DNA of 64,000 bases from Candidatus Woesearchaeota archaeon (lineage in GTDB: Archaea > Nanobdellota > Nanobdellia > Woesearchaeales > JAZDKJ01). The translations under genes and the position numbers were made by a program. This document shows positions 5,188-56,893 of the stretch, piece after piece. How positions within the stretch are numbered: position 1 is the first letter of the stretch; the number at the start of each line of letters is the position of its first letter. The notes under the pieces are model-generated. The model did no database searches. It was not told the origin of the DNA and saw only the letters and a list, made by a program, of their open reading frames with translations. The DNA is taken from NCBI GenBank assembly GCA_043803105.1, contig JAZDKJ010000006.1, positions 364,222-428,221 on the forward strand, written 5' to 3'.

Positions 5188-6671
5188 TTGATTACCTTCA
5201 GCCCCAAGCCTTTGAGTGCCTTGAGCACCTCTTCCTCGTTTGTGTCTGCCGAGACGCTTGCGAGTAGCGCAAGGTTCTTTCTTAACCCTATATTTGTTCC
5301 TTCAGGTGTCTCGATAGGGCATAGCCTTCCAAGGTGGGTGCTGTGCAGCTCCCTTGCCGCAAAGTTCTCCTGCGAGGCTGAGAGCGGGCTCACCACCCTT
5401 TGCAGGTGCGAGACTGTCTCCAGGAAGTTTAGCCTCTGAATTCTTTGGCTGATTCCCTTCCTGCCGCCTACCCAGGCTCCTGTTGCCATCGAGCTGTATA
5501 TCCTCTGGGTTAATAGCTTGTCCCTGATTATCACTTTGATGCTTGGGAATTTTCCCCTCTTTACTATTCTCTGGAAATTGTATAGTAGGTCTCCGATCAG
5601 CACTTTAAGGTTTACCCTGAATAGGTCTGCCAATAGGTCTCCTGAGCACTTGAGCCTCTTGTTCTTGTAGTGGTCCTTGTCGTCTTCCTCTACCTCTCCG
5701 TTTGACACAAGGATATATTTCTTGAGCATCTTGCAAAGGTTGTATGCTTTGTATATTCTCTCTTCTTTTTTCATTCCGATATGGGGCATCAGGTAGCGGT
5801 CAATTATCTCGGTTGTTCTTTCGATCCTGATTTCCTTTGCTTGTGTTATGCCTATCCTTTTTGCTATGAAGTCTAATGCGTCTTCACTCGTCTTTATATC
5901 TGCGAAGCTGTATAGGTTCACGACCACCTCATCGAATTGCCTCTCCTTGGATACTGACTTCATTATATCTTCATCGTTCAGGAGGCCAAGTGATTTTATG
6001 ACGATTATTAACGGAATTCTCTTAACTCTTGTAAAGGACAAATAGAAGATTCCATCCTTCATCTTTTCCAGTGTATGAGGTATCTTGTAATACCCATGCT
6101 CTGAGAATAGCTTGCCTGTGTATTCCGAAACCCCAATGTTTTGCTTCTCCACCAAAAGTTGGTTTGATGCGAGGTCTTCGACATCGATTAGTACCTTTTC
6201 TGTTCCGTTGATTATGAAATATCCTCCTGGGTCATCAGGGTCTTCACCCTTTTCTATAATCTCGTCCCTTGACATGTTGTGCAGGTGGCAAAACTTGCTC
6301 CTCAGCATGATTGGTATTGAGCCAACCTGGGTTACAAATGATTCTCTCTGCACATCATTGATATGGGCGCTTACCTCGATGAAGCATGGGCTTGCATAAG
6401 TTATCTTTCTTAGTCTTGCTTCAACAGGGTATATTGCCCTCCTTGAGCCGTCTGCTTCTGTTATCTCCGGCTTTGTGAGCCATATCTTGTCAAGCCTTAT
6501 CTTGAACTTGTCGACATTGCTTGGGATTATTGTGGGCTCTATATCTTTGTTTTCTTCTATAATCTTCTGCAGCTCGTGCTCTATAAAATAATTGTAGGAC
6601 TCTATGTCTGACTTTATGAGGGAATAGCTTTCAAAATATTTTTGTATCAGCAATTTTGCAGTGTTAACCAT
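5184..6671 (-). CDS. rpoB2: DNA-directed RNA polymerase subunit B'' (N-terminal half of B)
   Basis: 495-aa ORF ending in ...CPIETPEGTNIGLRKNLA, the conserved region just before the archaeal B''/B' split point. Confidence 0.95.
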   Translation of the reverse strand: MVNTAKLLIQKYFESYSLIKSDIESYNYFIEHELQKIIEENKDIEPTIIPSNVDKFKIRLDKIWLTKPEITEADGSRRAIYPVEARLRKITYASPCFIEVSAHINDVQRESFVTQVGSIPIMLRSKFCHLHNMSRDEIIEKGEDPDDPGGYFIINGTEKVLIDVEDLASNQLLVEKQNIGVSEYTGKLFSEHGYYKIPHTLEKMKDGIFYLSFTRVKRIPLIIVIKSLGLLNDEDIMKSVSKERQFDEVVVNLYSFADIKTSEDALDFIAKRIGITQAKEIRIERTTEIIDRYLMPHIGMKKEERIYKAYNLCKMLKKYILVSNGEVEEDDKDHYKNKRLKCSGDLLADLFRVNLKVLIGDLLYNFQRIVKRGKFPSIKVIIRDKLLTQRIYSSMATGAWVGGRKGISQRIQRLNFLETVSHLQRVVSPLSASQENFAARELHSTHLGRLCPIETPEGTNIGLRKNLALLASVSADTNEEEVLKALKGLGLKVIK

Positions 6672-6906
6672 TTATCGCACATCTGTAATAGTATGATTCT
6701 CCTGCAGTGCTGCTCTTTCGCGTTATCTTGACGACATCTCTCGGCTTTAGCTTTAGATCAATTACCGCAGGATCCTTGATAAGTAGTTTTGGTAGTTCGT
6801 TCTCAGTAATGTGGAAATGCTCGAGCAGCTGTTTTTTTTCAGCCTCGCTAAGTTTTTTATGCTTAGGCACAAGAATGTGTTTGCTTATGTTGAATGATGG
6901 CTTCAT
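6664..6906 (-). CDS. rpoH: DNA-directed RNA polymerase subunit H (Rpb5 homolog)
   Basis: The ORF-track ORF is 6664..6960, but its first 18 codons overlap the tRNA-Lys 3' exon. Start placed at MKPSFNISKHILVPKHKKLSEAEKKQLLEHF... (ATG = complement of 6904-6906). First gene of the rpoH-B-A operon. Confidence 0.85.
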   Translation of the reverse strand: MKPSFNISKHILVPKHKKLSEAEKKQLLEHFHITENELPKLLIKDPAVIDLKLKPRDVVKITRKSSTAGESYYYRCAING

Positions 6907-6917
6907 TTTAGATTGAA

Positions 6918-7044
6918 TGGGCCGGACGAGATTTTCTTTGTTTTTTTTTCCAAGTTGCATTCGAACTCGCGACCACCTGATTGCTTTGCAGCTTAAAAGT
7001 CAGGTGCTCTATTGCCCTTATACTCCAGGCTGAGCTACCGGCCC
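6918..7044 (-). tRNA. tRNA-Lys: tRNA-Lys(UUU), 127 nt, three introns (D-loop, anticodon loop, T-loop)
   Basis: Hand parse: GGGCCGG TA GCTC AGCCTGG[AGTATAAGGGCAA]TA GAGC A CCTGA CTTTTA[AGCTGCAAAGCA]A TCAGG TGGTC GCGAG TTCGAAT[GCAACTTGGAAAAAAAAACAAAGAAAAT] CTCGT CCGGCCC A. Exact splice points are ambiguous by 1-2 nt. Confidence 0.8.
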
Positions 7045-7059
7045 ATCGTGATTGAAAAA

Positions 7060-7225
7060 CGCCCTGGTCGGGACTTCCAACAACAGACATGCCGTATGAC
7101 ATTTTCAGCTGATTTGAACCCGAGTCGAAGCCTTTTTGCGGTAGCAAACAGTAATTCAACCCTCCCTCTGGTTGAAAAGCCACCTCGACAGGGCTTCATG
7201 ATAGGCCAGACTACACTACCAGGGC
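7060..7225 (-). tRNA. tRNA-Asp: tRNA-Asp(GUC), 166 nt, two introns (anticodon loop about 52 nt, T-loop 39 nt)
   Basis: Hand parse: GCCCTGG TA GTGT AGTCTGGCCTA TCAT G AAGCC CTGTCGA[GGTGGC...CCGCAAAAA region] GGCTT CGAC TCGGG TTCAAAT[CAGCTGAAAATGTCATACGGCATGTCTGTTGTTGGAAGT] CCCGA CCAGGGC G. Confidence 0.8.
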
Positions 7226-7432: not shown

Positions 7433-7559
7433 TCCCCGAGGCCGGAGTCGAACCAGCAACCTTTCGGTAACGGCTGAGTGTTTTTCACATTCTGCACTGA
7501 GTGCAATATCAAAACACTATCCCTACAGCCGAACGCTCTAGCCATTGAGCTACTCGGGG
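7433..7559 (-). tRNA. tRNA-Tyr: tRNA-Tyr(GUA), 127 nt, one canonical 54-nt anticodon-loop intron
   Basis: Hand parse: CCCCGAG TA GCTC AATGGCTA GAGC G TTCGG CTGTAG[54-nt intron]A CCGAA AGGTT GCTGG TTCGACT CCGGC CTCGGGG A. The C1-G72 pair is the archaeal/eukaryal Tyr identity pair. Confidence 0.85.
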
Positions 7560-7636: not shown

Positions 7637-7679
7637 GTTGCGAGCTGACTTTTCAGCTCAGCTATTGAGCTACTCAGGG
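7637..7679 (-). ncRNA. Truncated degenerate copy of the tRNA-Tyr 5' end (nt 1-24), ending within and continued by a conserved 23-nt hairpin
   Basis: CCCTGAGTAGCTCAATAGCTGAGC compared with the genuine CCCCGAGTAGCTCAATGGCTAGAGC (the D-loop GG is reduced to AG). The hairpin GAGCTGAAAAGTCAGCTCGCAAC (7659-7637) starts at the copy's last GAGC. The same hairpin occurs at 29650-29672 and 41291-41313. Confidence 0.6.
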
Positions 7680-10156: not shown

Positions 10157-12328
10157 CTAACTTACCTCTGGCGCAACAAACTGTGAATAATCGTTAACTG
10201 TGTAATCTACCTGTTTTGTCTTGCCGTCGCAGTTATCATCGACAGTGATCTTTCCGCTTAGCCTGCTGCCATCAATGACTGTCTCAGTGATGCTGTTTAC
10301 CTCAAGGTTCTGGTCTGAGAGGAAATCCACCATGCAGTAGAATTTTATTTTGCTGCCCCTTAGGCTGGTTGCTTTCCATCCAAAGTTCCCGTTGCCAATT
10401 ATCCAAGGTCCTTCGTAGTTGGAATGCGTCAAGGGATTGTTGTCAAAGTCCACTGTCACTGTGTTGTCTCCTTCTTTATAGGTTGAGGGCTTTATGACCA
10501 CGTTGCCTTTGGCCAGCATTCCCACCCGATAGTTTCCGCTTCCTATTATCATGCTCTTCATTGTTGGGTATAGGACAGTAGGGTTTGCAGACGCCCCGTT
10601 TATTGATATTGTTATCTCGTCTTTTGGCCTTGGCTGGTAGCGTGTTTCCTGCAACATTTCTTCAGGTGTTTTTCCGCAGCTGCTTCGTAAATATCCATTT
10701 GTCAGATAATAGTTCTCCAGGAATTTTCTTGCAAGCACAAGCTCCACTTCAATGCTGTAATTCTTCAGTTTCTCCAGTTTGTATTCGCTTTTTACAGCAT
10801 CAACAATCGTGCTGTAACCTGCCTTCTGCAACTTAAGCTGGAGCCCTGCGCATTTCGGCAGCTTTAAGGAGGCTCTGCCGCTGGAGGCTGTCTCTCCTGC
10901 ATCGCATTCGTTGATTGTGTTGTTGCATTGGAATCTGACACCAACTCCAGGCAATAATCCTGTTTCATTCGTTGTGACTACACTAGCCTGCGTGCTTACG
11001 TTGTTGCAGTCAAAGACACTTTTCATGGTCTCGCTTCCGAAAAATGCTGTCAGGTTCACTTCGCTATATGGATTCTGTCCAGTGCACTGCCTGTTCTGGT
11101 TTCCGCACAGGAAGAGTTGCATCGGGAAATAAAACGAGAAGCCCTGTTTTTCCTGCACCAAATTACCAATAATCTTGGCAGAATCGCTGTCTGTGATTTT
11201 TATCACCACAGGATGTGTCAAGAAGTACTTGAACCTGTAATCATAAATGCAGAAGCTTGGGAGGAATGGTATGCTTGTCTGCGATTCCTTGTCCGGGCTA
11301 ATCACGTTGCCGCTTGTGGGTTTGATGTCAAATTTGTTATCTGATTGTGCAGGGTAACTGAATTCTACGCTTATTGAGCTAAGATTTTCGAAATAATTCC
11401 TGATAAAGCTGTCATAAACTCCCTGGACTGAAGCGTCGTTTGAAATCACTCTTTCAAACTTTGTTCCGGCCATCTTTAGGTATGGAAAATTTTTTGAAAG
11501 TATGCCTTCAAGATTTTCCTTGACTTCATCTTTCGTCCATGTTACGTATTTGCAATCTGTGCTTGAGTCAGAGAAGCTGAACGGCGGAAGGTCTTTTGCT
11601 CCCTTTTCTGCCCCGGTATAGCTGTACAGAGAAATCAGTGACTTTGCGTGGTCTTCAAGATAAGTGTCTGCAAACTCTCTTGTGACTAATTCCATAGCTA
11701 TCTCATGGATCAGCGCCAGGTTTACATCCACCTGATAATTGTAGTTGTCCACTTCATACTGTTTTTCGTTCTGTGTGATCTGGATTGGCCAGTGAAGATC
11801 AATTGTTGCCTGTTTGCCGAACCTCACTGTGGTGTTTATTGTTCCAGTCTTGATAACATAACTTTTTTTTCTGAAGACCTCAAAGTCCGTGCATCTCGGC
11901 AGGTTTTCTGTGATGTATCTAGCTAGCTCATTTTGCATGTAATCTGTTGAAGGTACAGAAATCGAATCTTCGGTGATCCAGTAAGGGACCTTGTTCTTTC
12001 CTGTGGCGTCAATAACCTGAATCATGCTCCCAGTTTTAACCACAGTCCTATCGCCGCTTATGCCTGTTGTTTGTAGCTCGGTAGGAATGTATATGAACCC
12101 CGCCTGAAGCCCAAGGATTTCTATTCCTGAATTTGCATAATCACTTAGACACTGTTCCACATATGTCTTAACCTGTTGAGCAGGCTCTGCAAGTTGTAAT
12201 GCCCTTACCTGTTCGACCTGGATTGGCTGCTCTGTTGTTCTTGCCCAGCTAAAGTAGAAGATTGCCGCAGCTATCAGCATGATTATTCCGATGATTATGA
12301 ATATGGTTATCTGTCCTCTTTTTTCCAT
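10157..12328 (-). CDS. large extracellular protein with class III (type IV pilin-like) signal peptide
   Basis: 723-aa ORF. The N-terminus MEKRGQITIFIIIGIIMLIAAAIFYF matches the archaeal prepilin pattern: basic residues, G-Q cleavage site, then a hydrophobic helix. The rest is unrecognised. Confidence 0.6.
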   Translation of the reverse strand: MEKRGQITIFIIIGIIMLIAAAIFYFSWARTTEQPIQVEQVRALQLAEPAQQVKTYVEQCLSDYANSGIEILGLQAGFIYIPTELQTTGISGDRTVVKTGSMIQVIDATGKNKVPYWITEDSISVPSTDYMQNELARYITENLPRCTDFEVFRKKSYVIKTGTINTTVRFGKQATIDLHWPIQITQNEKQYEVDNYNYQVDVNLALIHEIAMELVTREFADTYLEDHAKSLISLYSYTGAEKGAKDLPPFSFSDSSTDCKYVTWTKDEVKENLEGILSKNFPYLKMAGTKFERVISNDASVQGVYDSFIRNYFENLSSISVEFSYPAQSDNKFDIKPTSGNVISPDKESQTSIPFLPSFCIYDYRFKYFLTHPVVIKITDSDSAKIIGNLVQEKQGFSFYFPMQLFLCGNQNRQCTGQNPYSEVNLTAFFGSETMKSVFDCNNVSTQASVVTTNETGLLPGVGVRFQCNNTINECDAGETASSGRASLKLPKCAGLQLKLQKAGYSTIVDAVKSEYKLEKLKNYSIEVELVLARKFLENYYLTNGYLRSSCGKTPEEMLQETRYQPRPKDEITISINGASANPTVLYPTMKSMIIGSGNYRVGMLAKGNVVIKPSTYKEGDNTVTVDFDNNPLTHSNYEGPWIIGNGNFGWKATSLRGSKIKFYCMVDFLSDQNLEVNSITETVIDGSRLSGKITVDDNCDGKTKQVDYTVNDYSQFVAPEVS

Positions 12329-29637: not shown

Positions 29638-29672
29638 GGGGCTGCGGGGGAGCTGCGAAGTCAGCTCGCACC
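29638..29672 (+). ncRNA. Truncated degenerate copy of the tRNA-Pro 5' end plus conserved 23-nt hairpin
   Basis: GGGGCTGCGGGGG compared with the genuine GGGGCTGTGGGGT (U8 replaced by C). The hairpin is GAGCTGCGAAGTCAGCTCGCACC (29650-29672). The leader ACAATCATT matches ACAATCAAT before the real tRNA. Confidence 0.6.
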
Positions 29673-29710: not shown

Positions 29711-29827
29711 GGGGCTGTGGGGTAGCTTGGTCTAGCCTATCTGGTTTGGGGCAATGCAAAAAACCAGATGACCCCGGTTCGAAAGTTTTATAAAAGGCTG
29801 ATTAACTCGAAAATCCGGGCAGCCCCA
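29711..29827 (+). tRNA. tRNA-Pro: tRNA-Pro(UGG), 117 nt, two introns (12-nt anticodon loop, 30-nt T-loop)
   Basis: Hand parse: GGGGCTG TG GGGT AGCTTGGTCTA GCCT A TCTGG TTTGGG[12 nt] CCAGA TGAC CCCGG TTCGAAA[GTTTTATAAAAGGCTGATTAACTCGAAAAT] CCGGG CAGCCCC A. The mature length is 75 nt. Confidence 0.85.
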
Positions 29828-35150: not shown

Positions 35151-35586
35151 TGCGTCTTGTCTTTGGCACATAGTTCAATATCCTTCCCTGTCTTGCGCTT
35201 CCGCAGCCAAGATAATGTTCCTTATGTTTCACGATCACAAATCCGTCCTGGCATTCCTTTTCTAAGTCAAAGCCTTTCAGCCAGCTCATTTCTTCCTGTT
35301 CATTCACTTCAACAATATTTTTTGTTGCGCCTGGGCCTATGATTTGGCTTCCTTCCATTGACAGCCTAAGCCTTTCGTGTGTTATCTCTCCGAAATAAAG
35401 CCCTACAGAATTGATTCGTAGCGCCTTTAGCTCTATCAACCCAAAATCCCGAGTGGTTAGGAAAATCCTTGACTTGTTGTTCATCAGGAATACGTACTCA
35501 AGTTTTGCCTTGAATCCCCATTGGTCTTCAAGGAGCACAGCTATCTTCTTTATTTCATGGGTGTTTAATATACTAAGGTTGTCCAT
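35143..35586 (-). CDS. NIP7-like (UPF0113) PUA-domain protein
   Basis: 147-aa ORF with a C-terminal PUA-like GFVIVKHKEHYLGCG. Confidence 0.55.
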   Translation of the reverse strand: MDNLSILNTHEIKKIAVLLEDQWGFKAKLEYVFLMNNKSRIFLTTRDFGLIELKALRINSVGLYFGEITHERLRLSMEGSQIIGPGATKNIVEVNEQEEMSWLKGFDLEKECQDGFVIVKHKEHYLGCGSARQGRILNYVPKTRRIK

Positions 35587-39452: not shown

Positions 39453-39654
39453 TGGGGCTGCTGGGATTTCCATGCTTCTAGGACGGTCTTTTGGCATCAG
39501 CCAAAAGCCTTTTCCCAGGTTTTTGCATATTGCAAAAAGCTGTTTGGACCCAGATTAGGAGGTTTTCCGCTGAAAACCTTAGGTCAAATGCCCCGAACCT
39601 CCAGTGATAGTTTCTCGAAGAGTTTCTCTCTTCTCCAAGTTACACTACAGCCCC
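39453..39654 (-). tRNA. tRNA-Pro: tRNA-Pro(CGG), 202 nt, three introns (D-loop 25 nt, anticodon loop 28 nt, T-loop about 76 nt)
   Basis: GGGGCTG TA GTGT AACTTGG[AGAAGAGAGAAACTCTTCGAGAAAC]TA TCAC T GGAGG TTCGGG[28 nt] CCTCC TAAT CTGGG TCCAAAC[AGCTTTTTGC...GCATGGAAAT] CCCAG CAGCCCC A. Confidence 0.7.
39635..39654 (-). repeat. 20-nt perfect direct repeat, copy 1 (first 20 nt of tRNA-Pro(CGG))
   Basis: GGGGCTGTAGTGTAACTTGG, identical to 41164-41183. The flanking bases differ on both sides. Confidence 0.9.
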
Positions 39655-39855: not shown

Positions 39856-40989
39856 ATGGATAACAGAGCAAAATTTGAACTTATAACGAGAAATTTAGAA
39901 GAAGTACTAACACCTGCAGATTTAATGAAACTCATTGAAAATGATGAGCCTTTAAAGCATTATATTGGTTTTGAAATAAGTGGTAAGGTGCATCTTGGAA
40001 CTGGACTTATGTGTATGTCCAAAATTAAAGACTTCATGGATGCAGGTGCGGATGTTTCTGTGTTTCTTGCTGACTGGCATAGTTGGATTAATGATAAACT
40101 TGGTGGAGACAGAGAAGTTATCAAAAAAATTGCCGTCGGATATTTCAAAGAAGCGATGAAGGCTAGCCTTCTTTGTCTTGGTGGTAATCCTGAAAAAATA
40201 AGATTTGTACTTGGTACAGAACTTTATCACAATAATGACGATTATTGGGCAACCATGATTGATGTAAGTAAAAATACGACTCTAGGCAGGATGACTCGGA
40301 GCATTACAATCCTTGGAAGAAAAGAAGGGGAGGGAGTTGATTTTGCAAAATTGATCTATCCTGCAATGCAGGTTTCAGATATTTTTGTTCAGAAATTGAA
40401 CATACCTCATGCAGGAATTGATCAAAGGAAAGCGCAAGTTATTGCAAGAGAAGTTGCTTTAAAAATGAAAGTAAGTCAAATTACTGATAAAGAGGGTAAT
40501 AAAATTAAACCCGTTGCCCTGCATCATCATCTGTTACTAGGTCTTGGCAAACCCCCGGTATGGCCTGTTCCTCAAGATAAATTACAGGATTTATGGTCAT
40601 CAATGAAGATGAGCAAGTCCAAGCCGGACACTTGTGTTTTTGTTCACGATAGTCCTGATGAAATTAAAAGAAAGATTGCAAAGGCATTCTGCCCTGAAGG
40701 TGAAACTGTGTTCAATCCAGTACTTGATTGGGCTAAATATTTATTGTTCAGAGAGACGACTGATGAACTTATAGTAAAAAGGCCTGAAAAATTCGGTGGA
40801 ACTGTTATATATACAACTTACGAAAAACTTGAAAAAGATTTTGCAGACAAAAAAGTTCATCCAATGGACCTTAAAGATTCAGTTGCTGAAAGTTTAATTA
40901 AACTACTTGAACCTGCAAGAATCCATTTTGAAAAACCTGAAATCAAAAAGACGTTGGATCAGCTTAACAAGCTCATAACCACAAGGTGA
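39856..40989 (+). CDS. tyrS: tyrosyl-tRNA synthetase (archaeal type)
   Basis: 377-aa ORF, recalled as collinear with M. jannaschii TyrRS: IGFEISGKVHLGT, LADWHSWIN, IYPAMQVSD, KMSKS, RPEKFGG and HPMDLK. Markedly more A+T-rich than its neighbours. Confidence 0.9.
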   Translation: MDNRAKFELITRNLEEVLTPADLMKLIENDEPLKHYIGFEISGKVHLGTGLMCMSKIKDFMDAGADVSVFLADWHSWINDKLGGDREVIKKIAVGYFKEAMKASLLCLGGNPEKIRFVLGTELYHNNDDYWATMIDVSKNTTLGRMTRSITILGRKEGEGVDFAKLIYPAMQVSDIFVQKLNIPHAGIDQRKAQVIAREVALKMKVSQITDKEGNKIKPVALHHHLLLGLGKPPVWPVPQDKLQDLWSSMKMSKSKPDTCVFVHDSPDEIKRKIAKAFCPEGETVFNPVLDWAKYLLFRETTDELIVKRPEKFGGTVIYTTYEKLEKDFADKKVHPMDLKDSVAESLIKLLEPARIHFEKPEIKKTLDQLNKLITTR

Positions 40990-41074: not shown

Positions 41075-41183
41075 TTTCGAATTCCGGTCGGACGCATTCT
41101 GGTTTCATCCTCAAGCGTAAGTGATAGTTGCTTCAGGCAACCGAGCGAACTGGTTGGCGCTGGCCAAGTTACACTACAGCCCC
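41075..41183 (-). pseudogene. Truncated tRNA: Pro-like body, anticodon GAG, no 3' acceptor strand nearby
   Basis: GGGGCTG TA GTGT AACTTGG[37-nt insert ending AAGCAAC]TA TCAC T TACGC TTGAGG[12 nt] GCGTC CGAC CGGAA TTCGAAA... No CAGCCCC follows before the tyrS stop. Confidence 0.5.
41164..41183 (-). repeat. 20-nt perfect direct repeat, copy 2
   Basis: GGGGCTGTAGTGTAACTTGG, identical to 39635-39654. Confidence 0.9.
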
Positions 41184-41290: not shown

Positions 41291-41330
41291 GGTGCCAGCT
41301 GACTTCTCAGCTGAGTAGCACTACAGCCCC
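41291..41330 (-). ncRNA. Truncated tRNA 5' copy (GGGGCTGTAGTG...) plus conserved 23-nt hairpin
   Basis: GGGGCTGTAGTGCTACTCAGCTGAGAAGTCAGCTGGCACC. The hairpin CAGCTGAGAAGTCAGCTGGCACC (41313-41291) carries a compensatory C1/G18 change relative to the other two copies. Confidence 0.6.
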
Positions 41331-46206: not shown

Positions 46207-47511
46207 ATGAAAGTCCTTATTGTAGGTTCAGGAGGTCGGGAGCATGCTCTGGCCTGGAAAATAGCCAAAAGTCCGCTGGTTTCTAAGGTATATTGTGCTC
46301 CAGGTAATGACGGAATTTTGCAGACGCCAAAGGCAGATTGTTTCTCAGAAATCAAGGCAACAGATATTGAAGGCCTTGTTTCCCTGGCGAAAAAGAAAGG
46401 TGTTGATTTCACTCTTTTTGGTCCTGAAGATTCTTTGGTCAACGGCGCCTATGACAGGTTCAGGAAAGAAGGCCGTCTTGCTTTAGGCCCTGATAGCTGG
46501 GGAGCTGATATTGAAGGCAGCAAAGCCTGGACAAAGGACTTGATGCAAAACTATGGTATACCTACTGCCTTTGGCCAGTCAACCTCAAGGATTTCACAAG
46601 CTAAGGATATTGCCAAGGAATTTGTGCAGCATTATGGTGGTGTAGTTGTCAAGGCAGATGGGCCTTGTGGCGGAAAGGGAGTTTTTGTATGCAGAACCTT
46701 GCTTGAAGCCATTTTAGCCATAGACCGGATTATGGTCAAGCGAGTCTTTGGCCCTGCTGGAAAGCGAGTTGTCTTGGAAGAACTGCTTGTTGGCGAGGAA
46801 GCATCATTCATGGCATTGGTAAACAGCGTCGAAGATTATATCTTGCCTTTTGCTTCATCGCAAGACCATAAGAGGCGTGATGATGGAGATAAAGGCCCAA
46901 TGACCGGCGGCATGGGTGCTTATTCGCCTGCGCCTGTAGTAACACCTGTAATTCATAAAATGATAATGAAAGACACCTTGTACCAGACTATGCGCGCTAT
47001 GGCTCAGGAAGGCAGGCCTTATGTTGGGGTCATGTATGCTGGCCTAATGATAGTTAAAGGAAAACCAAAGGTGCTGGAATTCAACTGCCGCTTCGGAGAC
47101 CCAGAGATCCAGCCAATACTAATGAGGATGAAACCTGACATTATGCCTTTGCTCATTGGCTGTGCAGAAGGCAACCTCAGAAAACAGACGGTTGAATGGT
47201 ACGACGACGCTGCGGTCTGCGTAGTTATGGCCTCAAAAGGTTATCCTGAATCAGAGCAATTGAGAGGCCAGCAGATTCACGGCCTTGAGGATGTTACACA
47301 CATGGAAAATGTCTATGCCTTCCATGCAGGCACTGCTTACAAGAATGGTGTTTGGACTAATAAGGGTGGCCGTGTCTTAGGTGTAACTGGCAGAGCGCCC
47401 ACCATAAAGGAGGCACAAGACCTTGCCTATGAAGCAGCCAAAATGATTACATTCAATGGTGCTCATTATCGCACTGACATAGGCAATAAAGCAATCCAGA
47501 AAACAGTCTAG
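46207..47511 (+). CDS. purD: phosphoribosylamine-glycine ligase
   Basis: 434-aa ORF: MKVLIVGSGGREHALAWK...NCRFGDPE. Confidence 0.93.
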   Translation: MKVLIVGSGGREHALAWKIAKSPLVSKVYCAPGNDGILQTPKADCFSEIKATDIEGLVSLAKKKGVDFTLFGPEDSLVNGAYDRFRKEGRLALGPDSWGADIEGSKAWTKDLMQNYGIPTAFGQSTSRISQAKDIAKEFVQHYGGVVVKADGPCGGKGVFVCRTLLEAILAIDRIMVKRVFGPAGKRVVLEELLVGEEASFMALVNSVEDYILPFASSQDHKRRDDGDKGPMTGGMGAYSPAPVVTPVIHKMIMKDTLYQTMRAMAQEGRPYVGVMYAGLMIVKGKPKVLEFNCRFGDPEIQPILMRMKPDIMPLLIGCAEGNLRKQTVEWYDDAAVCVVMASKGYPESEQLRGQQIHGLEDVTHMENVYAFHAGTAYKNGVWTNKGGRVLGVTGRAPTIKEAQDLAYEAAKMITFNGAHYRTDIGNKAIQKTV

Positions 47512-47550
47512 TATTGCGAATAACAGAAAAGCAAGTTAGAGGTATCTCAA

Positions 47551-48504
47551 GTGTCTGATAAACTGTTGCTGATTGGTATGGGTTCGCCTAGTGATTTGAA
47601 GCATTTTGAAAAGCCTTATGCAAGCCTTGACGGCACCATCCCGGAATATCTCTTAAAAAAGGGTGTGAGACTATATTTGAGCCCTGGCACAGGAAAGCCT
47701 CTTGTTACCTCAATACATCGCACCACTGATACAGCAATGAAATTTGCAGATTCTCTTGATAGCTTGGTTGCTATAGAAGGAAGAAATGACAGGTTTGTTG
47801 CCTTATTGTTTGGCGGGCTTGCTTTTCATCTTGGTGGGGCTTTTGCTGGAAAGAATCCTGCAATACCGACGATTGTAGCTGCGATGGATGAGCATGCCTT
47901 CATGAGCGCCTATGCTATGCCTAAAGGAACTCCGGTTGGATTGGTTGGAGTCAACCAGCTTGACAAGGCTGTGATGATGGCAACTAAGATTCTTGACTAT
48001 AACGATTCTAACCGAGCATGGATCATACACCATCATTTCACCAATCCTCCATCGACTGATAGGGAGCATCTCGTAAAGTCTTCATATGATGCTGCCACTC
48101 AGCTTCTGCAAAAGTGCAATGTTTTGTCTTGGGCAGTTGAATTTATTTTTGTCGCGCAGAAGAAATATAAAGGTGTTTCATTAAGCCTGCCAGCGCTGCC
48201 ACAAACCGCAATAGAAATGGACAAGAGGTTAATTTTGGGTTCTGTTTCGTTTGTCAATCCTGCTGCGTTAAGTCCTTGCACCACAGGTCAGTATCAGACC
48301 CTCATGGATGTTGCTGGTCAGCTCAAGAACTCTTTGCTGGTCCATGACCCTTACAACGCAGCCCTTTTTACAATCCAGGTTATCGCAAACAAGTATCCAG
48401 ACTTACGTCTTGGGCTTGACAGGATAAAGGAAGAATCGAGGCTGCCGACTGCGAAGGGTGGGTATTCTCAGTTTTTGCCAATAAAAAAGGATGATTTCAA
48501 GTGA
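47551..48504 (+). CDS. purE: PurE-like (AIR carboxylase/mutase fold) protein, double length
   Basis: 317-aa ORF with a GTG start after an SD. Contains IGMGSPSD, TSIHRTTD, GGLAFHLGG and AMPKGTPVG, which are collinear with E. coli PurE motifs as recalled. The C-terminal half resembles a second, weaker PurE-like repeat. Confidence 0.6.
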   Translation: MSDKLLLIGMGSPSDLKHFEKPYASLDGTIPEYLLKKGVRLYLSPGTGKPLVTSIHRTTDTAMKFADSLDSLVAIEGRNDRFVALLFGGLAFHLGGAFAGKNPAIPTIVAAMDEHAFMSAYAMPKGTPVGLVGVNQLDKAVMMATKILDYNDSNRAWIIHHHFTNPPSTDREHLVKSSYDAATQLLQKCNVLSWAVEFIFVAQKKYKGVSLSLPALPQTAIEMDKRLILGSVSFVNPAALSPCTTGQYQTLMDVAGQLKNSLLVHDPYNAALFTIQVIANKYPDLRLGLDRIKEESRLPTAKGGYSQFLPIKKDDFK

Positions 48505-48515
48505 GGTGAAATAAC

Positions 48516-49796
48516 GTGGGCAGTACAAAAGATTTGGTTACTACAGGAAAGCTTGGTGAGCAATGGTATGCGCCTCCAACCGCTGTCAAGTTTGGTTATG
48601 GACCAATGCAGGTAAAAGGAACCTTCTCTGTGGCAGACTTAAAGAAGCTTATTCCTGAGTCTATCATAAAAAACAAGGCAGAAGCCCTTGCCATGCAGCA
48701 GGCAGCATTTGCAGAGTATCTGCAATATAATCACCCTGAGATCCCAAATTCCTATTATGGTATATTGGACAAAGATTTCAAACGTACTGACGTTCAGCAC
48801 TTGTTGTCTAAGGGAGAAACATCGAGCATCGTAGTCATGAAGCTTGCCCACACGCCAGATAGCTTTTGCGAAGGTAACCTTGATAAATATCGGGCTGCCC
48901 TGCAATCAGGAGAATTACAGTGCGGCGTTGCAGACGTGGAGTCAATCTTCAGGCTGGGCTTTCCGCTCGGCAGCTCGACTTTCGAGGATATTTTCAAGGC
49001 TGTCAGGTTAGGAGAAAAGTACGAGCATTTAGCCACTTACAATGAGACTGCGGCCGAACTCGACAAAATCAGGGCTATGGTTTCCGAGCAAGGTCTTGAC
49101 ATCTTCGAAGGTTTGGAGGAATTGCTTCAAAAAAAAGGCCTGGGCACCACTATTCCGAATCCAGGATTTGTCCTCAAGCATTTTGTTTATGATACAACCA
49201 CAAAATTCGTGAGTTACGGCGACCTTAAGATATCTGAGGAAGATGCTGAGAAACTTAGCGGCCTAAGCCATGAGAGTTATCAGCTCTGGAAGAATGACAT
49301 GTTCCCGAAGATTGCTGCTGCGCAGATAAAATTTTGCATGGAAAGGAACATATTCAATATTGATGGCAAGAGTGAAATCGTGGCATACCATCGCATGCCA
49401 GTTGTTGCCGACTTCCAATGCACTGTTGACGAAAACAGGGAAATGATAGTTGTGGCGGTTGACGGGGTTGAATGGCTGATTCCCAGCAATAAGGAAATAC
49501 AGCGGGCGATTTTCAGAAAAGAGGGAGTTTATGCAGCAAAGGCTGAGGCTTTAAGGCGGTCAGTAAAAGACAAAGGAGTCTTTGACCATTGGAAGGAGTA
49601 TTTTCCGGCTGTCATCAAGGAGCGAAAGATTGATTTGGTGGGTGTTACAGAATTCTCGTGTGATTTGATGGCAAATGCAATCATGGAAGTTGCCAACCGG
49701 ACTCTCGGCCATAGGGTGTTTGATGCAAAGCCGCTTGACTCGTGGGTTAGAGACTTTGTTCCTTATGCTAGTAAGTTACAAAGGCAAGGTGATTAA
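48516..49796 (+). CDS. purC: SAICAR-synthetase-like protein (divergent, long)
   Basis: 426-aa ORF with an N-terminal GSTKDL...FSVADL and a later IDGKSEIV...VADFQCTVDENR that resemble PurC motifs. Operon context. Confidence 0.5.
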   Translation: MGSTKDLVTTGKLGEQWYAPPTAVKFGYGPMQVKGTFSVADLKKLIPESIIKNKAEALAMQQAAFAEYLQYNHPEIPNSYYGILDKDFKRTDVQHLLSKGETSSIVVMKLAHTPDSFCEGNLDKYRAALQSGELQCGVADVESIFRLGFPLGSSTFEDIFKAVRLGEKYEHLATYNETAAELDKIRAMVSEQGLDIFEGLEELLQKKGLGTTIPNPGFVLKHFVYDTTTKFVSYGDLKISEEDAEKLSGLSHESYQLWKNDMFPKIAAAQIKFCMERNIFNIDGKSEIVAYHRMPVVADFQCTVDENREMIVVAVDGVEWLIPSNKEIQRAIFRKEGVYAAKAEALRRSVKDKGVFDHWKEYFPAVIKERKIDLVGVTEFSCDLMANAIMEVANRTLGHRVFDAKPLDSWVRDFVPYASKLQRQGD

Positions 49797-49798
49797 GA

Positions 49799-51751
49799 AT
49801 GGGGCATGTTTTGTTCGGTCGTTATCCAAGCAAGGAGATGAAGGAAATCATCGGTCCTCAACCCAAGGATTACAGGACGCTTTGCTCTCCTGATATGGAA
49901 AATATTTTCTCCAAGGAGTCAAAACATAATGGTTGGGATGACGTTTGGTATGCCCATATGAAAGCACAAAAAGAAACAGGCCTGCCAATACCGCAGGAGC
50001 ATTTGGATGCCTTCCAAGTTATTCTACACAAGATTAATTATCAACGCATGGATGAGATTGAACGAATCCTGAAGCATGATGTTGATTCTGGCAGGAAGCA
50101 TCGTGCTGAAGAATTGGAGAAGGTGTTGGAAGGCTCTTCCGCATGGCTGCATGCTGGTGCAACTAGCTGCACGGTCACAGATAATCAGGAGCTTACTGCA
50201 ATGTATAACGGCTTGCAGCTCTTGGCAGACAAAGGATACAATCTCCTTAACAAGCTTGAGCGTTTTGATTCTGGTCTGATTGTTAACCAGCACAAGTCAG
50301 ATCTAGAATATGCCTTGAATATATTAGACAGCAGGATCAACAACTTCAAGATAAGAGGTGCAAAAGGCACCACAGGCACCCAGGCAAGCTATCTCGAGCT
50401 GTTTGATGGCAATGCAGAAAAGGTCAGCGCTTTCGAACAAGCCTTCATCCAAAGACTTGGGTTTGGTAGGGCATTCACGATAACCGGTCAGACCTATCCA
50501 CGGATTGCGGATTACCAGCTCGTATCAACCTTGGGCGTGCTTGCGACTGCGCTTTCAAACATTGCAGAGTACTCAGTCAGCTTTTCCGAAGAATTAGCTC
50601 ATCCTTTGTCTGATGTGAAGAGCTTTGCAAAAAGCGCTGCGCACATGGCATCCAAGCAGTGGTTGGAGCGAACACTAGATGACTCTGCCCAGAGACGGAT
50701 TATCATCGAAGATTCCTTCAAGGCAGTTGAGTATGTTCTGGATAGGCTGAACTCTGCAGAAATTAACCCGATAGAGATAAGGGACCCTGACTTTCAGCTA
50801 AGCCAGCCATTGTCAGAAACGCTTGAAGGCACTACAGGCAAGGCTCTTGAGCTGTTGCGTGACAAGACTGTGAATACAATTTTCAGAATTCACACATTTG
50901 CAGAGAAGTTCAAGGACCAGCCTTGCATGGCATACACTCATTATCAGGTTGCCCAGCCTACAACTGTAGGCAAGCGGCTTGACCTTTGGGCCTATAATTA
51001 TGTTTTGGCACTTCAGGACATTGAAGACTTTTTGGAGTCTGACAAGAACCTTGAAGTAAGCCAGAATATTGTTGAATATCGCATCGCCACACTGTTAACA
51101 CAGATTGCGGTTGCTGCCCATAAGCAAGCCGCAGATGTCAGGTTGTGCCAGCATGACGGGATAATGACTGAGCCTTTTGCAATTGGCCAAAAAGGTTCAA
51201 GTGCTATGCCTCATAAGCGCAATCCTATGAAGAATGAGCGCATCTGTTCTCTATCTACAGAGTTGATTCAGTATGCTGATTCCAATAATGCCAACCCTTA
51301 TAGCTTTTTGCTAGCTGACTCAGTCTTGAATCTTGCAATGGCTGTTTTTGTTGAGGATACTCCTAAACAAAAGGGCTTTACTGTTAACCCAGAGGTTATT
51401 GCAAAGAATTTCAGGGAATTTCTGCCATATATCTGCCTAGAGCAACTGGTTAACAAAGTGCTCAAGACAGGAAAATACAAGCGCGAGGAGCTGTATGACA
51501 TCGCTTACAATTGCTCAATACAGGCCCGAACCAATGTCGAGGTACACGGCAAGGCAAACAACACGCTTGAATTAGTGTGCGAATACCCTCAATTTGGGCT
51601 CACTCCAGAAATGATTCCTGCGATGCTTGATCCTATGCTCTATATCGGTCTAGCGTCAAAACAGGTAGAATTGTTTGGAAGGGTGCATGTGGACCCCTTG
51701 AAAGAGAAGTACAAATCTGTTCAGGCGTTAGAGTCTGACGTGAAAGTTTAA
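49799..51751 (+). CDS. purB: adenylosuccinate lyase (long form)
   Basis: 650-aa ORF with an N-terminal RYPSKEM and the fumarate-lyase signature GSSAMPHKRNP. Confidence 0.8.
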   Translation: MGHVLFGRYPSKEMKEIIGPQPKDYRTLCSPDMENIFSKESKHNGWDDVWYAHMKAQKETGLPIPQEHLDAFQVILHKINYQRMDEIERILKHDVDSGRKHRAEELEKVLEGSSAWLHAGATSCTVTDNQELTAMYNGLQLLADKGYNLLNKLERFDSGLIVNQHKSDLEYALNILDSRINNFKIRGAKGTTGTQASYLELFDGNAEKVSAFEQAFIQRLGFGRAFTITGQTYPRIADYQLVSTLGVLATALSNIAEYSVSFSEELAHPLSDVKSFAKSAAHMASKQWLERTLDDSAQRRIIIEDSFKAVEYVLDRLNSAEINPIEIRDPDFQLSQPLSETLEGTTGKALELLRDKTVNTIFRIHTFAEKFKDQPCMAYTHYQVAQPTTVGKRLDLWAYNYVLALQDIEDFLESDKNLEVSQNIVEYRIATLLTQIAVAAHKQAADVRLCQHDGIMTEPFAIGQKGSSAMPHKRNPMKNERICSLSTELIQYADSNNANPYSFLLADSVLNLAMAVFVEDTPKQKGFTVNPEVIAKNFREFLPYICLEQLVNKVLKTGKYKREELYDIAYNCSIQARTNVEVHGKANNTLELVCEYPQFGLTPEMIPAMLDPMLYIGLASKQVELFGRVHVDPLKEKYKSVQALESDVKV

Positions 51752-53220
51752 TGCGACCACTAAAAAACGAGCCTTCAAGGAGCTTGAAGGAGTACAGGCT
51801 TCTTACAGGCAGGACTACTGCTAAGACTGTTATGTCTTCTGTCAATCTCAGGACAAGACTCTGCACGAGTCCTAATGGCAAGGACTTTCTCTATCTGAAC
51901 ATTCCATTGATGAGCGCAGCAATGCAGGCTGTTTCAGGAACAAGGTTATCTGTTGCGCTTGCACAGTTTGGAGGCATTTCTGTTTTGCCGTGCTCTATTC
52001 CGGTTCAGGAGCAGGTTGCAATAATCAAGGAAGTGAAGCGCTTCAAGGCAGGCTTCCAGGAGGATGTGACAACCTTTTCCAAGGATGACCTGATTGCCGA
52101 TGCTGTTAAGGTAATGAGTACAAAAGGCTATCACACTTTTCCCATAACAGAAAATGGGAGATCGCACGGGAGGCTCCTTGGCATATTATCAGACAGGAAT
52201 TTTGACCCCAAAGAGCACGTAAAGAATAAGATCGAGAAACACATGGTGAAGAATGTTGTGACAGCAAGGGAGGGCATTTCATTGCCTGATGCAAACAAGG
52301 TGATGATAAAATACGGCAGGAGCATACTACCTATTGTTGACTCAAGGAAAAACCTACGATACGTTGTCTTCAAGAAAGACCTGGAAAAGCACAGGAACTT
52401 TCCTGATGAGCTCGTCGACCATAACAAGCGCTATATGATCGCTGCAGCAGTCTCGACCTTGCCTAGTGACCACTCAAGGATTGATGCCCTGATTAAGGCA
52501 GGAGTTGATGCCTTGATCATTGATTCCTCCGATGGTTTTTCTGATTTCCAAATTGAGACCTTGAGCTATATCCGTAATAAAACAAGGAAGATTCCGGTGA
52601 TTGGGGGAAATATAATCACTAAAGAAGGCTTTTTTCACTTGGCTGAAGCTGGTTTTGATGCAGTTAAGGTCGGAATGGGAATTGGTTCTGGCTGCACGAC
52701 ACAAGAGCAGAAAGGTGTTGGTCGAGGCCAGGCTTCTGCCTTGATTGATGTCTGCGCTGCTCGCGACGAGTTTTATTCAAACACCAACAGATATCTTCCA
52801 ATAATTTCTGATGGCAGCATTTCAAATCCTGGCCAGATTGTAATTGCCTTGGCTCTAGGCGCAGATTCTGTCATGATGGGTCGGTTCTTTGCCCAATTCT
52901 CCGAGTCTGAAGGCGGTGTGAGGAATCATCCTCAATACGGTCCATTGAAAGAATTCTGGATGGAAGCCTCTGCCAGGGCGAGGAGTTATGGCCGCTATGA
53001 AACCAAGCCAGAATTCTTTTTTGAGGAAGGTGTCGAAGGCTATGTTCCGCACATTGGATCAATCTATGATAATCTCGGCCAGACTTTGATCAAGATAAAG
53101 TCTGCCTTGTCCAATGCTGGCTGCAAGAATATAGATGAATTGCACAAGACTGCAGTGCTTGAATTGCAATCAATAGCATCATTGCAGGATGCTGCAGTGC
53201 ATGATATTATAACTAAGTGA
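51751..53220 (+). CDS. guaB: IMP dehydrogenase (with CBS pair)
   Basis: 489-aa ORF with IDSSDG, GIGSGCTTQ and ISDGSI motifs, plus a CBS insert. Confidence 0.85.
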   Translation: MRPLKNEPSRSLKEYRLLTGRTTAKTVMSSVNLRTRLCTSPNGKDFLYLNIPLMSAAMQAVSGTRLSVALAQFGGISVLPCSIPVQEQVAIIKEVKRFKAGFQEDVTTFSKDDLIADAVKVMSTKGYHTFPITENGRSHGRLLGILSDRNFDPKEHVKNKIEKHMVKNVVTAREGISLPDANKVMIKYGRSILPIVDSRKNLRYVVFKKDLEKHRNFPDELVDHNKRYMIAAAVSTLPSDHSRIDALIKAGVDALIIDSSDGFSDFQIETLSYIRNKTRKIPVIGGNIITKEGFFHLAEAGFDAVKVGMGIGSGCTTQEQKGVGRGQASALIDVCAARDEFYSNTNRYLPIISDGSISNPGQIVIALALGADSVMMGRFFAQFSESEGGVRNHPQYGPLKEFWMEASARARSYGRYETKPEFFFEEGVEGYVPHIGSIYDNLGQTLIKIKSALSNAGCKNIDELHKTAVLELQSIASLQDAAVHDIITK

Positions 53221-53230
53221 GGTGTCATAA

Positions 53231-54643
53231 ATGGGTTTTTCAGAATTGGTGTCAGGTAAGCAGACAATTGCTATTGTTTGCAATCAATGGGGTGATTCAG
53301 GCAAGGGAAAGTTTGTCCACTTGTTTAGCGAGTGGGCTGACATTATCGCACGTGGTACTGGAGGTCCGAATGCAGGTCATACTGTTGTAATAAACGACAA
53401 GACATACATCTTCCACACGATCCCTTCTGGAATTTTGTATGACTGCGCTGGAAAGACTAATGTGATGGGACCTGGAATGGTTATTGATTTGAAAGGCCTT
53501 GGTGAAGAGTTGGACACGCTTGACAAAGAGCGTGCCTCATATAATCACTTGGTTATCAGCAATGCAGCAAATGTGATTTTGCCCCAGCACAAGATTCGAG
53601 ATGGTGCTGCTTTCGCATCCATGGCCAAAGGGTCTGTTGGTTCAACCGGCCGAGGCATCGGCCCTTGCTATGCTGATGCGACTGCCAGAACAGGAATTAC
53701 CTTAGCAGATCTGTTTGACAAAGATATATTGGCAAAGAAATTGAGGGAAAACCTCAAGAACTATCCTGATTTGGTTGACAAGCTAGACGTGGACGAGATT
53801 ATTGAAGAGCAGCTCAAACATTTTGAAAGAATAAGACCTTTTGTCCGCGAAACGCATTATCTTATGAACGAGTCCCTTGCTGCAGGAAAGAAGATCCTCC
53901 TGGAAGGTGCACAGGGATTATTGCTGAGCATAATGTTTGGTACCACACGATATCAGACCAGCTCTGATTGCTCTATTATCGGAACAGCTCAAGGTGTAGG
54001 CCTGAATCCAGCAGTCGTTGACTTAACTCTTGGGATAGTCAAGGCACCTTATATGACTCGTGTTGGCAACGGCCCATTCCCTACTGAGTTTGGAGGAGTA
54101 CTGGCTGAAGAGTATTGTGCAGATGTGAGCCACAACAAGAAGGTTGAACTGGCAAATTACAATCTTGAAGCGCTTCTACGCTCTCCACGCGAGTTCGACC
54201 AGGGGTTATATGCGAGAATTAAAGGAAATGAGTATGGGGCCACCACTGGCCGTCCAAGGAGAACCGGATGGATTGACTTGGTTGCCCTTCGCTATGCTGC
54301 CATGATTAACAAGAGCGCAAAGGCGAAAAGGGCTGATGTTATCATAACAAAGCCCGATGTGATGGATGAGTTTGACAAGATAAAATTATGTGTTGGCTAC
54401 ACCCTTGGGGGTGTGATCACCACCAGGTTCCCGCACCGTTCTGAACTGCTTGAACAATGTGCACCTATTTACGTAACCATGGACGGGTGGAAGACCCCAA
54501 TAAGCGACTTCAGGGATTACAATGAAATAAAGAGGAAAGCGCCAAACCTTGCCAACATTCTGTTCTTCATTGAAGAATATGCTGGTGTTAATATCAGGAG
54601 CGTATCTGTTGGCGCTGATAATGACCAAACAATCTTTAGGTGA
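53231..54643 (+). CDS. purA: adenylosuccinate synthetase
   Basis: 470-aa ORF with QWGDSGKGKF, GPNAGHT, TGRGIGPCY and GATTGRPRR motifs. Confidence 0.92.
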   Translation: MGFSELVSGKQTIAIVCNQWGDSGKGKFVHLFSEWADIIARGTGGPNAGHTVVINDKTYIFHTIPSGILYDCAGKTNVMGPGMVIDLKGLGEELDTLDKERASYNHLVISNAANVILPQHKIRDGAAFASMAKGSVGSTGRGIGPCYADATARTGITLADLFDKDILAKKLRENLKNYPDLVDKLDVDEIIEEQLKHFERIRPFVRETHYLMNESLAAGKKILLEGAQGLLLSIMFGTTRYQTSSDCSIIGTAQGVGLNPAVVDLTLGIVKAPYMTRVGNGPFPTEFGGVLAEEYCADVSHNKKVELANYNLEALLRSPREFDQGLYARIKGNEYGATTGRPRRTGWIDLVALRYAAMINKSAKAKRADVIITKPDVMDEFDKIKLCVGYTLGGVITTRFPHRSELLEQCAPIYVTMDGWKTPISDFRDYNEIKRKAPNLANILFFIEEYAGVNIRSVSVGADNDQTIFR

Positions 54644-54652
54644 GGTGTAAAA

Positions 54653-55426: not shown

Positions 55427-55427
55427 G

Positions 55428-56891: not shown

Positions 56892-56893
56892 GA

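Follow-up and report, generated by a model that had tools for sequence, protein, structure and literature searches.

Predicted introns in the D-, anticodon, and T-loops of tRNA genes from a Woesearchaeota archaeon

The 64-kb stretch of DNA from a Candidatus Woesearchaeota archaeon that is analyzed here (64,000 nucleotides of contig JAZDKJ010000006.1, hereafter the window) carries adjacent genes for tRNA-Asp(GUC) and tRNA-Lys(UUU) that are much longer than the tRNAs that they specify. The question raised by this locus is whether the additional blocks, which are found in the D- and T-loops as well as in the anticodon loop, are introns of functional genes. An original prediction, made from the letters of the sequence, had proposed introns in all three loops of both genes, gene lengths of 166 (Asp) and 127 nt (Lys) for mature lengths of about 75 and 74 nt, and an architecture that recurs elsewhere in the genome. 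Its observation is confirmed to the nucleotide by the present analysis, and its reading of the blocks as introns is supported: the genes are very probably functional tRNA genes, each transcript of which would contain between one and three short, protein-spliced introns.

The boundaries of the inserted blocks were first proposed by eye and then set by the bulge-helix-bulge (BHB) rule that is described below; their coordinates and pairing are listed in Table 1. Removal of three blocks from the tRNA-Lys gene (13 + 12 + 28 nt) leaves 74 nt that ARAGORN types as a canonical tRNA-Lys(ttt), and removal of two blocks from the tRNA-Asp gene (52 + 39 nt) leaves 75 nt that are typed as tRNA-Asp(gtc). The gene lengths, the mature lengths, and the lengths of all five inserts that had been proposed are therefore borne out, with the inserts located at positions 19/20, 37/38, and 59/60 in Lys and at 37/38 and 59/60 in Asp. 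The arms also pair normally once the blocks are removed, as had been foreseen, and ARAGORN draws canonical cloverleaves for both products. The presence of introns in all three loops holds for tRNA-Lys; the tRNA-Asp gene of the window has no D-loop intron, although 13 of 50 Asp orthologues do have one.

Intronless orthologues provide the most direct proof available that the gene consists of the proposed exons and excludes the inserts. A search of a collection of species-representative genomes with RpoB'', which is encoded near the two tRNA genes, yielded 62 loci (related loci are cited below by number, such as L001), and the Asp-Lys pair upstream of rpoB'' (in the window, of an rpoH-rpoB'' cluster) is kept across Woesearchaeota in almost all of them. 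Of the best 56 loci (48–86% identity), all but a few bear the label Woesearchaeota, Nanoarchaeota, or Nanoarchaeia, and the weaker matches are from Iainarchaeota and Micrarchaeota. Because of the labels of these relatives, we assign the window to the Woesearchaeota and thus to a DPANN archaeon, not a crenarchaeon. The spliced Asp and Lys sequences of the window were aligned to each locus with an aligner that permits free long gaps, and the gaps were slid within their equivalent range to the best BHB register. Introns number zero, one, two, and three in 12, 14, 18, and 10 of the 54 Lys orthologues, respectively; the corresponding numbers for the 50 Asp orthologues are 10, 17, 16, and 7. The intronless orthologues align without gaps to the predicted mature sequences of the window, with a mean column identity of 90–94%, and are scored at 50–72 bits by the Rfam tRNA model. 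Spliced tRNA-Asp of the window has 72 of 75 identities with that of L027. The Lys exons are identical to those of L001 at 74 of 74 positions, and the introns of the two genes are different; in general, introns that share a site have entirely different sequences, with lengths of 12–161 nt. When the products were spliced in silico, 104 of 106 (the 104 orthologues and the two genes of the window) were typed by ARAGORN as Lys(ttt) or Asp(gtc).

The introns of the Asp and Lys genes in these ~50 species-level genomes occupy four recurrent sites, namely 19/20-20/20a, 30/31, 37/38, and 59/60. With those of the window included, introns are present at 19/20 in 22 Lys genes, at 30/31 in 10, at 37/38 in 18, and at 59/60 in 22, whereas the numbers of Asp genes with an intron are 13 at 20/20a, 19 at 37/38, and 28 at 59/60. 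A few extra sites, with one to four occurrences each, score poorly against the BHB rule and are most likely small boundary errors. The load differs between close and distant relatives: those with an RpoB'' identity of at least 64% to the window average 1.62 introns per gene over 89 Asp/Lys genes, 11 of which are intronless, as compared with 0.40 in more distant Woesearchaeota (15 genes, 11 intronless).

A splice-site geometry was first derived from the canonical site, 37/38, together with what is generally known of BHB motifs, and was then tested. Four exon bases ending two before the 5' cut pair with four intron bases ending two before the 3' cut to form the central helix (H), the flanking exon bases form the outer helix (h), and each cut is placed after the second base of a 3-nt bulge. 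Every one of the 11 window introns has three or four of the four pairs in each of the two helices, in the exact register that yields the mature tRNA. The rule was also applied to 144 Asp/Lys introns, which are those in site classes occupied at least four times, window included. The central helix is complete in 71% of these, and 81% have at least three pairs in both helices; in an offset control in which the 3' site was moved by 2–12 nt, these values fall to 1.6 and 2.6%, respectively. At 52 T-loop junctions, 95.8% of the central-helix cells are paired, as compared with 24–57% when the partner is slid. Double changes are seen at two of the four central-helix pairs of these junctions (U55-A to C55-G and A57-U to G57-C), and their covariation score was reached by none of 500 shuffles. 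T-loops with UUCG are accompanied by intron tails with CGAA, those with UUCA by UGAA, and those with UCCG or UCCA by UGGA. Covariation is also present at the Lys 30/31 junction (CACC with GGUG and CAUC with GAUG) and at the D-loop junction (GCCU/GGGC and GCUU/GAGC). The precursors fold with modestly more favorable energies than shuffled sequences do (z = -2.5 and -2.9), and the minimum free energy (MFE) structure of pre-tRNA-Lys includes the D-loop central helix.

The strict form of the motif, hBHBh', in which an inner helix follows directly after a 3-nt 5' bulge, is found in only two of the 11 window introns and so does not describe the set as a whole. An inner helix is absent from four (hBH or "BHL" type), both of the 12-nt canonical introns among them, and the remaining five have an enlarged 5' bulge; among the orthologous introns, about half have the strict motif. 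The Lys introns at 30/31, a site that is unoccupied in the window, are those of L006, L009, L011, L012, L014, L015, L025, L029, L030, and L044. Their outer helix arises from the pairing of the D-stem's 3' strand (UAGAG) with the anticodon loop (CUUUU), an alternative to the cloverleaf, which must therefore refold for cleavage.

An all-against-all blastn-short comparison of ~160 introns, a test of intron mobility that has little power on such short AT-rich sequences, gave three weak pairs, none of which included a window intron, and intron transposition is therefore unsupported. The strongest similarity between different genes, which extends over 20 nt (95% identity, E = 4.5e-5), involves the 59/60 introns of L030 Asp and L014 Lys and would represent either a weak hint of intron exchange or chance. 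The 59/60 introns of the Asp genes in L001 (L001:242–376), L006, L014, and L029 have lengths of 104–161 nt, more than is needed for splicing, and could hold a small RNA or a remnant.

The architecture is not confined to the Asp-Lys pair. All five intact tRNA genes of the window are interrupted, with 11 introns in all, one to three per gene, corresponding to a density of 2.2 per gene (n = 5), and the T-loop site 59/60 is occupied in four of the five. The suggestion of a general habit is thus upheld within the window. Of the two other regions to which it had been extended, 29711–29827 was correctly identified and contains tRNA-Pro(UGG) on the plus strand with introns of 12 and 30 nt. The second region, 39453–39654, contains tRNA-Pro(CGG) with introns of 22, 28, and 76 nt, but only on the minus strand. 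The plus strand gives no tRNA: it has no Rfam match, an enumeration of BHB and T-arm candidates produced no coherent tRNA, and its MFE structure, although very stable (z = -5.5), has bulges of the wrong handedness for BHB. The minus strand was tried because the acceptor stem reads alike on both strands, and this stem is the same as that of tRNA-Pro(UGG). The fifth gene, for tRNA-Tyr, has a single intron at the canonical site and is reported by ARAGORN in intron mode as tRNA-Tyr(gta) with intron i(39,54). No further intact tRNA gene was found in the window by scanning for T-arm and acceptor pairs and for GC-rich acceptor pairs in intergenic gaps, a procedure that could overlook a gene interrupted at another T-loop position or within its acceptor stem.

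The T-loop of tRNA-Pro(CGG) reads UCCAAAU, with C at position 55 in place of the near-universal U55, the pseudouridine site. T-loops with C55 (UCCAAAU or UCCGAAN) recur in tRNAs of Woesearchaeota, namely in L007 (Asp), L014, L025, L029 (Lys), L079, and L105 (Leu). In C55 tRNAs with a 59/60 intron, the intron tail mostly compensates (UGGA or AGGA), although not fully in L029. Orthologues of tRNA-Pro(CGG) were sought through the neighboring gene for a class I Trp/Tyr-type aminoacyl-tRNA synthetase in a metagenome scan; the 80 loci obtained contained no homologue, and the synteny is not conserved.

Table 1. Coordinates and pairing of the tRNA genes, their predicted introns, and rpoH in the window
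Feature	Coordinates	Strand	Length (nt)	Site	Central helix	Outer helix	Remarks
tRNA-Lys(UUU) gene	6918..7044	-	127				three introns; mature 74 nt; CCA not encoded
Lys intron 1	7012..7024	-	13	D-loop 19/20, after G18G19	GCCU/GGGC 4/4	3/4	relaxed hBH, without inner helix
Lys intron 2	6982..6993	-	12	canonical 37/38	CUUU/AAAG 4/4	4/4	relaxed hBH
Lys intron 3	6932..6959	-	28	T-loop 59/60	UUCG/AGAA 3/4	4/4 (= T-stem)	enlarged 5' bulge
tRNA-Asp(GUC) gene	7060..7225	-	166				two introns; mature 75 nt
Asp intron 1	7134..7185	-	52	37/38	3/4	4/4	hBHBh' shaped; 6-bp inner helix GGUGGC/GCUACC
Asp intron 2	7074..7112	-	39	T-loop 59/60	UUCA/UGGA 4/4	4/4	
tRNA-Tyr(GUA) gene	7433..7559	-	127				one canonical intron; Rfam tRNA 54.6 bits
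Tyr intron	7469..7522	-	54	37/38	3/4	4/4	enlarged 5' bulge
tRNA-Pro(UGG) gene	29711..29827	+	117				two introns; mature 75 nt; spliced product tRNA-Pro(tgg) by ARAGORN
Pro(UGG) intron 1	29751..29762	+	12	37/38	UUUG/CAAA 4/4	4/4	hBH
Pro(UGG) intron 2	29784..29813	+	30	T-loop 59/60	UUCG/CGAA 4/4	4/4	
tRNA-Pro(CGG) gene	39453..39654	-	202				three introns; mature 74-76 nt; spliced product tRNA-Pro(cgg) by ARAGORN
Pro(CGG) intron 1	39612..39633	-	22	D-loop, after G18-G19	CUUG/CGAG 4/4	3/4	inner helix 5 bp; alternative boundary 39611-39634 (24 nt)
Pro(CGG) intron 2	39564..39591	-	28	37/38	UUCG/CGGA 4/4	4/4	
Pro(CGG) intron 3	39467..39542	-	76	T-loop 59/60	UCCA/UGGA 4/4	4/4	
rpoH	6664-6906	-					Rpb5 C-terminal domain, 97.5 bits; start 11 nt past tRNA-Lys 3' end

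A sixth tRNA-like locus is present at ~41075–41183 on the minus strand. Its first 20 nt are identical to those of the tRNA-Pro(CGG) gene and are followed by a 37-nt D-loop insert, TATCAC, an anticodon arm with a 12-nt insert (anticodon GAG in a Pro-like body), CGAC, the 5' strand of a T-stem (CGGAA), and the start of a T-loop (UUCGAA). Neither a 3' T-stem strand nor an acceptor strand was found after it or elsewhere in the window; the only partial match, at 35199, was rejected as a chance match inside an open reading frame (ORF). The fragment may be a pseudogene that has been truncated, or else the 5' piece of a tRNA that is split at 59/60. The synthetase gene mentioned above (39856–40989, plus strand) lies between this fragment and the intact tRNA-Pro(CGG) gene.

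Three copies of a two-part element were also noted, at 7639–7679 (minus strand), 29638–29670 (plus), and 41293–41330 (minus), which are located 120, 73, and 147 nt, respectively, upstream of the 5' end of a tRNA. The first part is a copy of the initial 12–20 nt of the tRNA-like gene downstream (18 of 20 for Tyr, 11 of 12 for Pro(UGG), and 12 of 12 for a Pro(CGG)-like 5' end), and the second is a palindromic hairpin, [G/C]AGCUG-NN-AAGU-CAGCU[C/G]-GCA, for which three matches were obtained as compared with 0.03 expected by chance. The stem of the third copy has a compensatory change from G..C to C..G. Searches of 142 related loci with the exact hairpin pattern and two degenerate forms gave no match. 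The three may have been left behind by an element with tRNA genes as its target or could represent an upstream regulatory palindrome.

Three other explanations of the interrupted genes were weighed. The genes could be decaying pseudogenes that have been disrupted by insertions, with functional copies elsewhere in the genome. Such decay would be in keeping with the failure of standard finders to detect four of the five window genes, with the tRNA-gene debris in the window (the truncated Pro-like fragment and the partial copies of 5' ends), and with the atypical C55 of tRNA-Pro(CGG). However, the exons are strongly constrained, as in the perfect match of the Lys exons to those of L001, while the inserts diverge freely; every insert lies where a BHB forms in the correct register, with a helix that covaries; most of the ~50 species-level genomes have this syntenic Asp-Lys pair in interrupted form; and no intact tRNA gene in 64 kb is uninterrupted. 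Genomes of this group have a size of ~1 Mb, and the recurrence of pseudogenes across such genomes would be unexpected. Because of the conservation of the exons in the face of free intron divergence, the covarying helix, and the recurrence in ~50 genomes, decay was excluded as a most improbable explanation. It is even harder to maintain that the cloverleaves are an artifact of the choice of blocks, arising by chance, by over-fitting, or by misassembly of a metagenome bin. The boundaries were indeed set initially by eye, and a BHB rule as permissive as ours often matches structured RNA, but the offset and slide controls collapse, the same architecture is present in more than 50 independently assembled genomes, and the predicted products correspond base by base to independent intronless orthologues. 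In effect, the intronless orthologues refute this explanation, and we regard its probability as negligible.

The remaining explanation holds that the inserts are, or are removed by, something other than BHB introns: self-splicing group I or II introns, expansion segments that are retained in the tRNA, or hosts of small RNAs such as C/D box guides. Retained D- or T-loop inserts would break the tertiary contact between G18G19 and Ψ55C56, which counts against retention. Group I introns do occur in rRNA genes of Woesearchaeota (PMC6125680), and some of the orthologous T-loop introns are as long as 104–161 nt, but those of the window (12–76 nt) are far below the size of a ribozyme, which is in the hundreds of bases. 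Rfam gives no intron or small RNA family above threshold, and thus neither group I introns nor those of group II. There is a subthreshold C/D match to snoU49 (16.5 bits, E = 3.1) over the T-loop intron of tRNA-Asp, on the opposite strand; inspection of the window introns by eye revealed no convincing pair of C and D boxes. The BHB register and the covariation, moreover, are explained only by recognition by an endonuclease. This explanation was excluded because of the size of the introns, the lack of Rfam matches, and the BHB register, and we consider it very unlikely.

In the processing pathway that we propose for protein-spliced introns, the pre-tRNA would fold locally at each exon-intron junction into a BHB motif or its relaxed hBH version, with the central helix flanked by an outer helix that corresponds to the stem of the D-, anticodon, or T-arm or to an alternative pairing. 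Cleavage by the archaeal splicing endonuclease EndA would follow the second base of each 3-nt bulge, and an RtcB-type ligase would then join the exons to give standard tRNAs of 74–76 nt, to which CCA would be added post-transcriptionally. We infer EndA and the ligase as the agents of the reaction; neither gene was found in the window by the searches described below. Of the 11 window introns, 9 depart from the strict hBHBh' form, and the EndA of this lineage therefore appears to be one of broad specificity.

Several points weigh against the proposal that these are functional genes with protein-spliced introns. Splicing is a prediction from the DNA sequence. Pfam searches of the ~60 ORFs of at least 120 amino acids in the 64-kb window revealed no EndA or RtcB, and tblastn with Methanocaldococcus jannaschii EndA (Protein Data Bank 1a79) over the window and 142 related loci found nothing. 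Most motifs of the window are relaxed in that they lack an inner helix or have an enlarged 5' bulge, a type that the classical α4 and α'2 enzymes reportedly do not cut; according to PMC3239211 and PMC5829648, relaxed motifs are cut by (αβ)2 and ε2 endonucleases and not by α4 and α'2. The outer helix is weaker at the D-loop junctions, with three of four pairs in Lys and two of four in Asp orthologues. The scoring rule for BHB is permissive in highly structured RNA, giving 74 matches on one 202-nt strand; it therefore does not define introns alone, and the argument rests on the comparative evidence. Finally, given its C55, tRNA-Pro(CGG) could be a weakly functional copy.

The interrupted genes are largely invisible to standard searches. 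ARAGORN detects none of the five window genes by default and one of five in intron mode, and the Rfam tRNA model likewise finds one of five, tRNA-Tyr, and does not see the unspliced Lys and Asp genes. Among the 53 Asp/Lys genes with at least two introns, the two of the window included, the default mode of ARAGORN misses 52; the intron mode misses 48 and assigns the wrong type or boundaries to four. Several interrupted Asp/Lys orthologues (L001–L062) are miscalled in intron mode as tRNA-Stop(tta), Ile(aat), Asn(gtt), Met(cat), Leu, Val, and Pro. Because of these misses and miscalls, the automated annotation of such bins probably contains errors in addition to gaps. For its BHB models, tRNAscan-SE 2.0 relied on training sets from Crenarchaeota/Euryarchaeota and Thaumarchaeota only (PMC8450103). 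Since finders miss these genes, apparent gaps in the tRNA sets of DPANN bins may be partly artifacts, which would affect estimates of completeness and arguments about host dependence.

The order of genes in this part of the window is tRNA-Tyr, tRNA-Asp, tRNA-Lys, rpoH, rpoB'', rpoB', and rpoA', so that RpoH, both parts of a split RpoB, and RpoA' are encoded just downstream of the three tRNA genes. The split RpoB that had been ascribed to this genome was found in the window as B' and B''. The tRNA-Asp gene is upstream of that for tRNA-Lys, from which it is separated by 15 nt, and is itself preceded, at a distance of ~20–25 nt, by a TATA-like sequence, CTTAAATT; this spacing and the TATA-like sequence suggest that the two tRNAs may be co-transcribed. 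In a distant part of the window, a contiguous purine biosynthesis cluster (46207–58884, plus strand) encodes GARS, an AIR carboxylase-like protein, adenylosuccinate lyase, IMP dehydrogenase, adenylosuccinate synthetase, IMP cyclohydrolase, AICARFT, and AIR synthase. To our knowledge, DPANN archaea are generally described as being without nucleotide synthesis, and the cluster is thus unusual for them. A subthreshold Rfam match to the C/D box RNA SNORD29 (31.4 bits, E = 0.03) at 11905–11968 on the plus strand is antisense to an ORF of 723 amino acids (10157–12328) that has no Pfam match.

The phenomenon as such is a known one in archaea, and its presence in DPANN is known at the level of surveys; the genes described here are an unusually dense further example and overturn nothing. 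Up to three introns per tRNA gene, with non-canonical sites that include 20/21, 30/31, and 59/60, are textbook knowledge for Crenarchaeota and Nanoarchaeota (PMC4090602). The surprise that the original prediction implied at finding such genes outside the Thermoproteales is therefore weaker than it was taken to be, since the window is from a DPANN archaeon and disrupted tRNA genes have already been published for that group (PMC3239211 and PMC5829648). For tRNA introns in Woesearchaeota in particular, our literature search found nothing beyond a mention in the survey of Kaneta et al. (2018). New here are the four hot spots, formal support from covariation, the clade effect, the local density, and the warning about annotation. 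The occurrence of zero to three introns at four fixed sites across ~50 genomes provides a compact natural data set for the study of intron gain and loss, and the same Asp/Lys set is suited to that of co-evolution between tRNA genes and EndA specificity.

Split and permuted tRNA genes, as found in Nanoarchaeum equitans, Caldivirga, and Thermofilum, follow the same BHB processing logic, and the points at which they are split fall on intron hot spots, among them 30/31 and 37/38 (PMC4090602). In contrast, the five genes of the window are contiguous and colinear and so are neither split nor permuted; only the fragment at 41183 might be a gene piece. Closer in lineage is Candidatus Micrarchaeum acidiphilum ARMAN-2, a DPANN archaeon in which 56% of tRNA genes are disrupted and whose ε2 EndA cleaves a 13-nt hBH intron at 59/60 in vitro (PMC3239211). 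ARMAN-2 resembles the organism studied here in its 59/60 hBH intron and in having a tRNA-Pro with T-loop introns (PMC3239211); it belongs, however, to the Micrarchaeota and not to the Woesearchaeota, and its double T-loop arrangement at 53/54 and 59/60 is not seen here. Kaneta et al. (2018) surveyed tRNA disruption and EndA type in 46 archaea, including one Woesearchaeon (RBG_13_36_6) and one Pacearchaeon (PMC5829648). The survey notes that incomplete DPANN tRNA sets imply undetected disrupted genes, which agrees with the ARAGORN and Rfam misses reported here. It describes a tally of tRNAscan-SE 2.0 results at the level of the genome and, in its available text, offers neither intron positions nor motif types nor comparative dynamics for Woesearchaeota, whereas the present analysis deals with hot spots, covariation, clade-restricted density, and presence or absence in ~50 genomes. 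The same source suggests an α4-type EndA with an L3 loop for DPANN; if this were the sole EndA of the lineage, it would provide a natural case of a homotetramer with broad specificity, one faced with relaxed hBH motifs even at 37/38.

The closest parallel in architecture is with the Thermoproteales (Pyrobaculum, Thermofilum, and Caldivirga), which have an (αβ)2 EndA with a crenarchaeal loop and in which up to three introns per gene, non-canonical sites (20/21, 30/31, and 59/60 among them; PMC4090602), relaxed motifs (hBH/HBh'), and a high intron density are likewise found. The lineage is a distant one, however, since the window is from a mesophilic DPANN archaeon with ~44% G+C and a split RpoB. 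The sites here are also few and strongly recurrent, with four hot spots in the two genes surveyed, and the comparison of introns revealed no between-gene similarity that would suggest the transposition of introns that has been reported in Thermoproteales. The number of introns per tRNA gene is 0.21 over all archaea studied and 0.84 in Thermoproteales, with a published maximum of 1.54 in P. calidifontis, which has 71 introns in 46 genes (PMC8450103). The densities found here, 2.2 per gene for the five genes of the window and 1.62 for Asp/Lys in its close relatives, are higher than the Thermoproteales value, and the former, if representative, exceeds the published record; it is nevertheless doubtful, although conceivable, that this woesearchaeal clade has the densest load of tRNA introns of any known organism.

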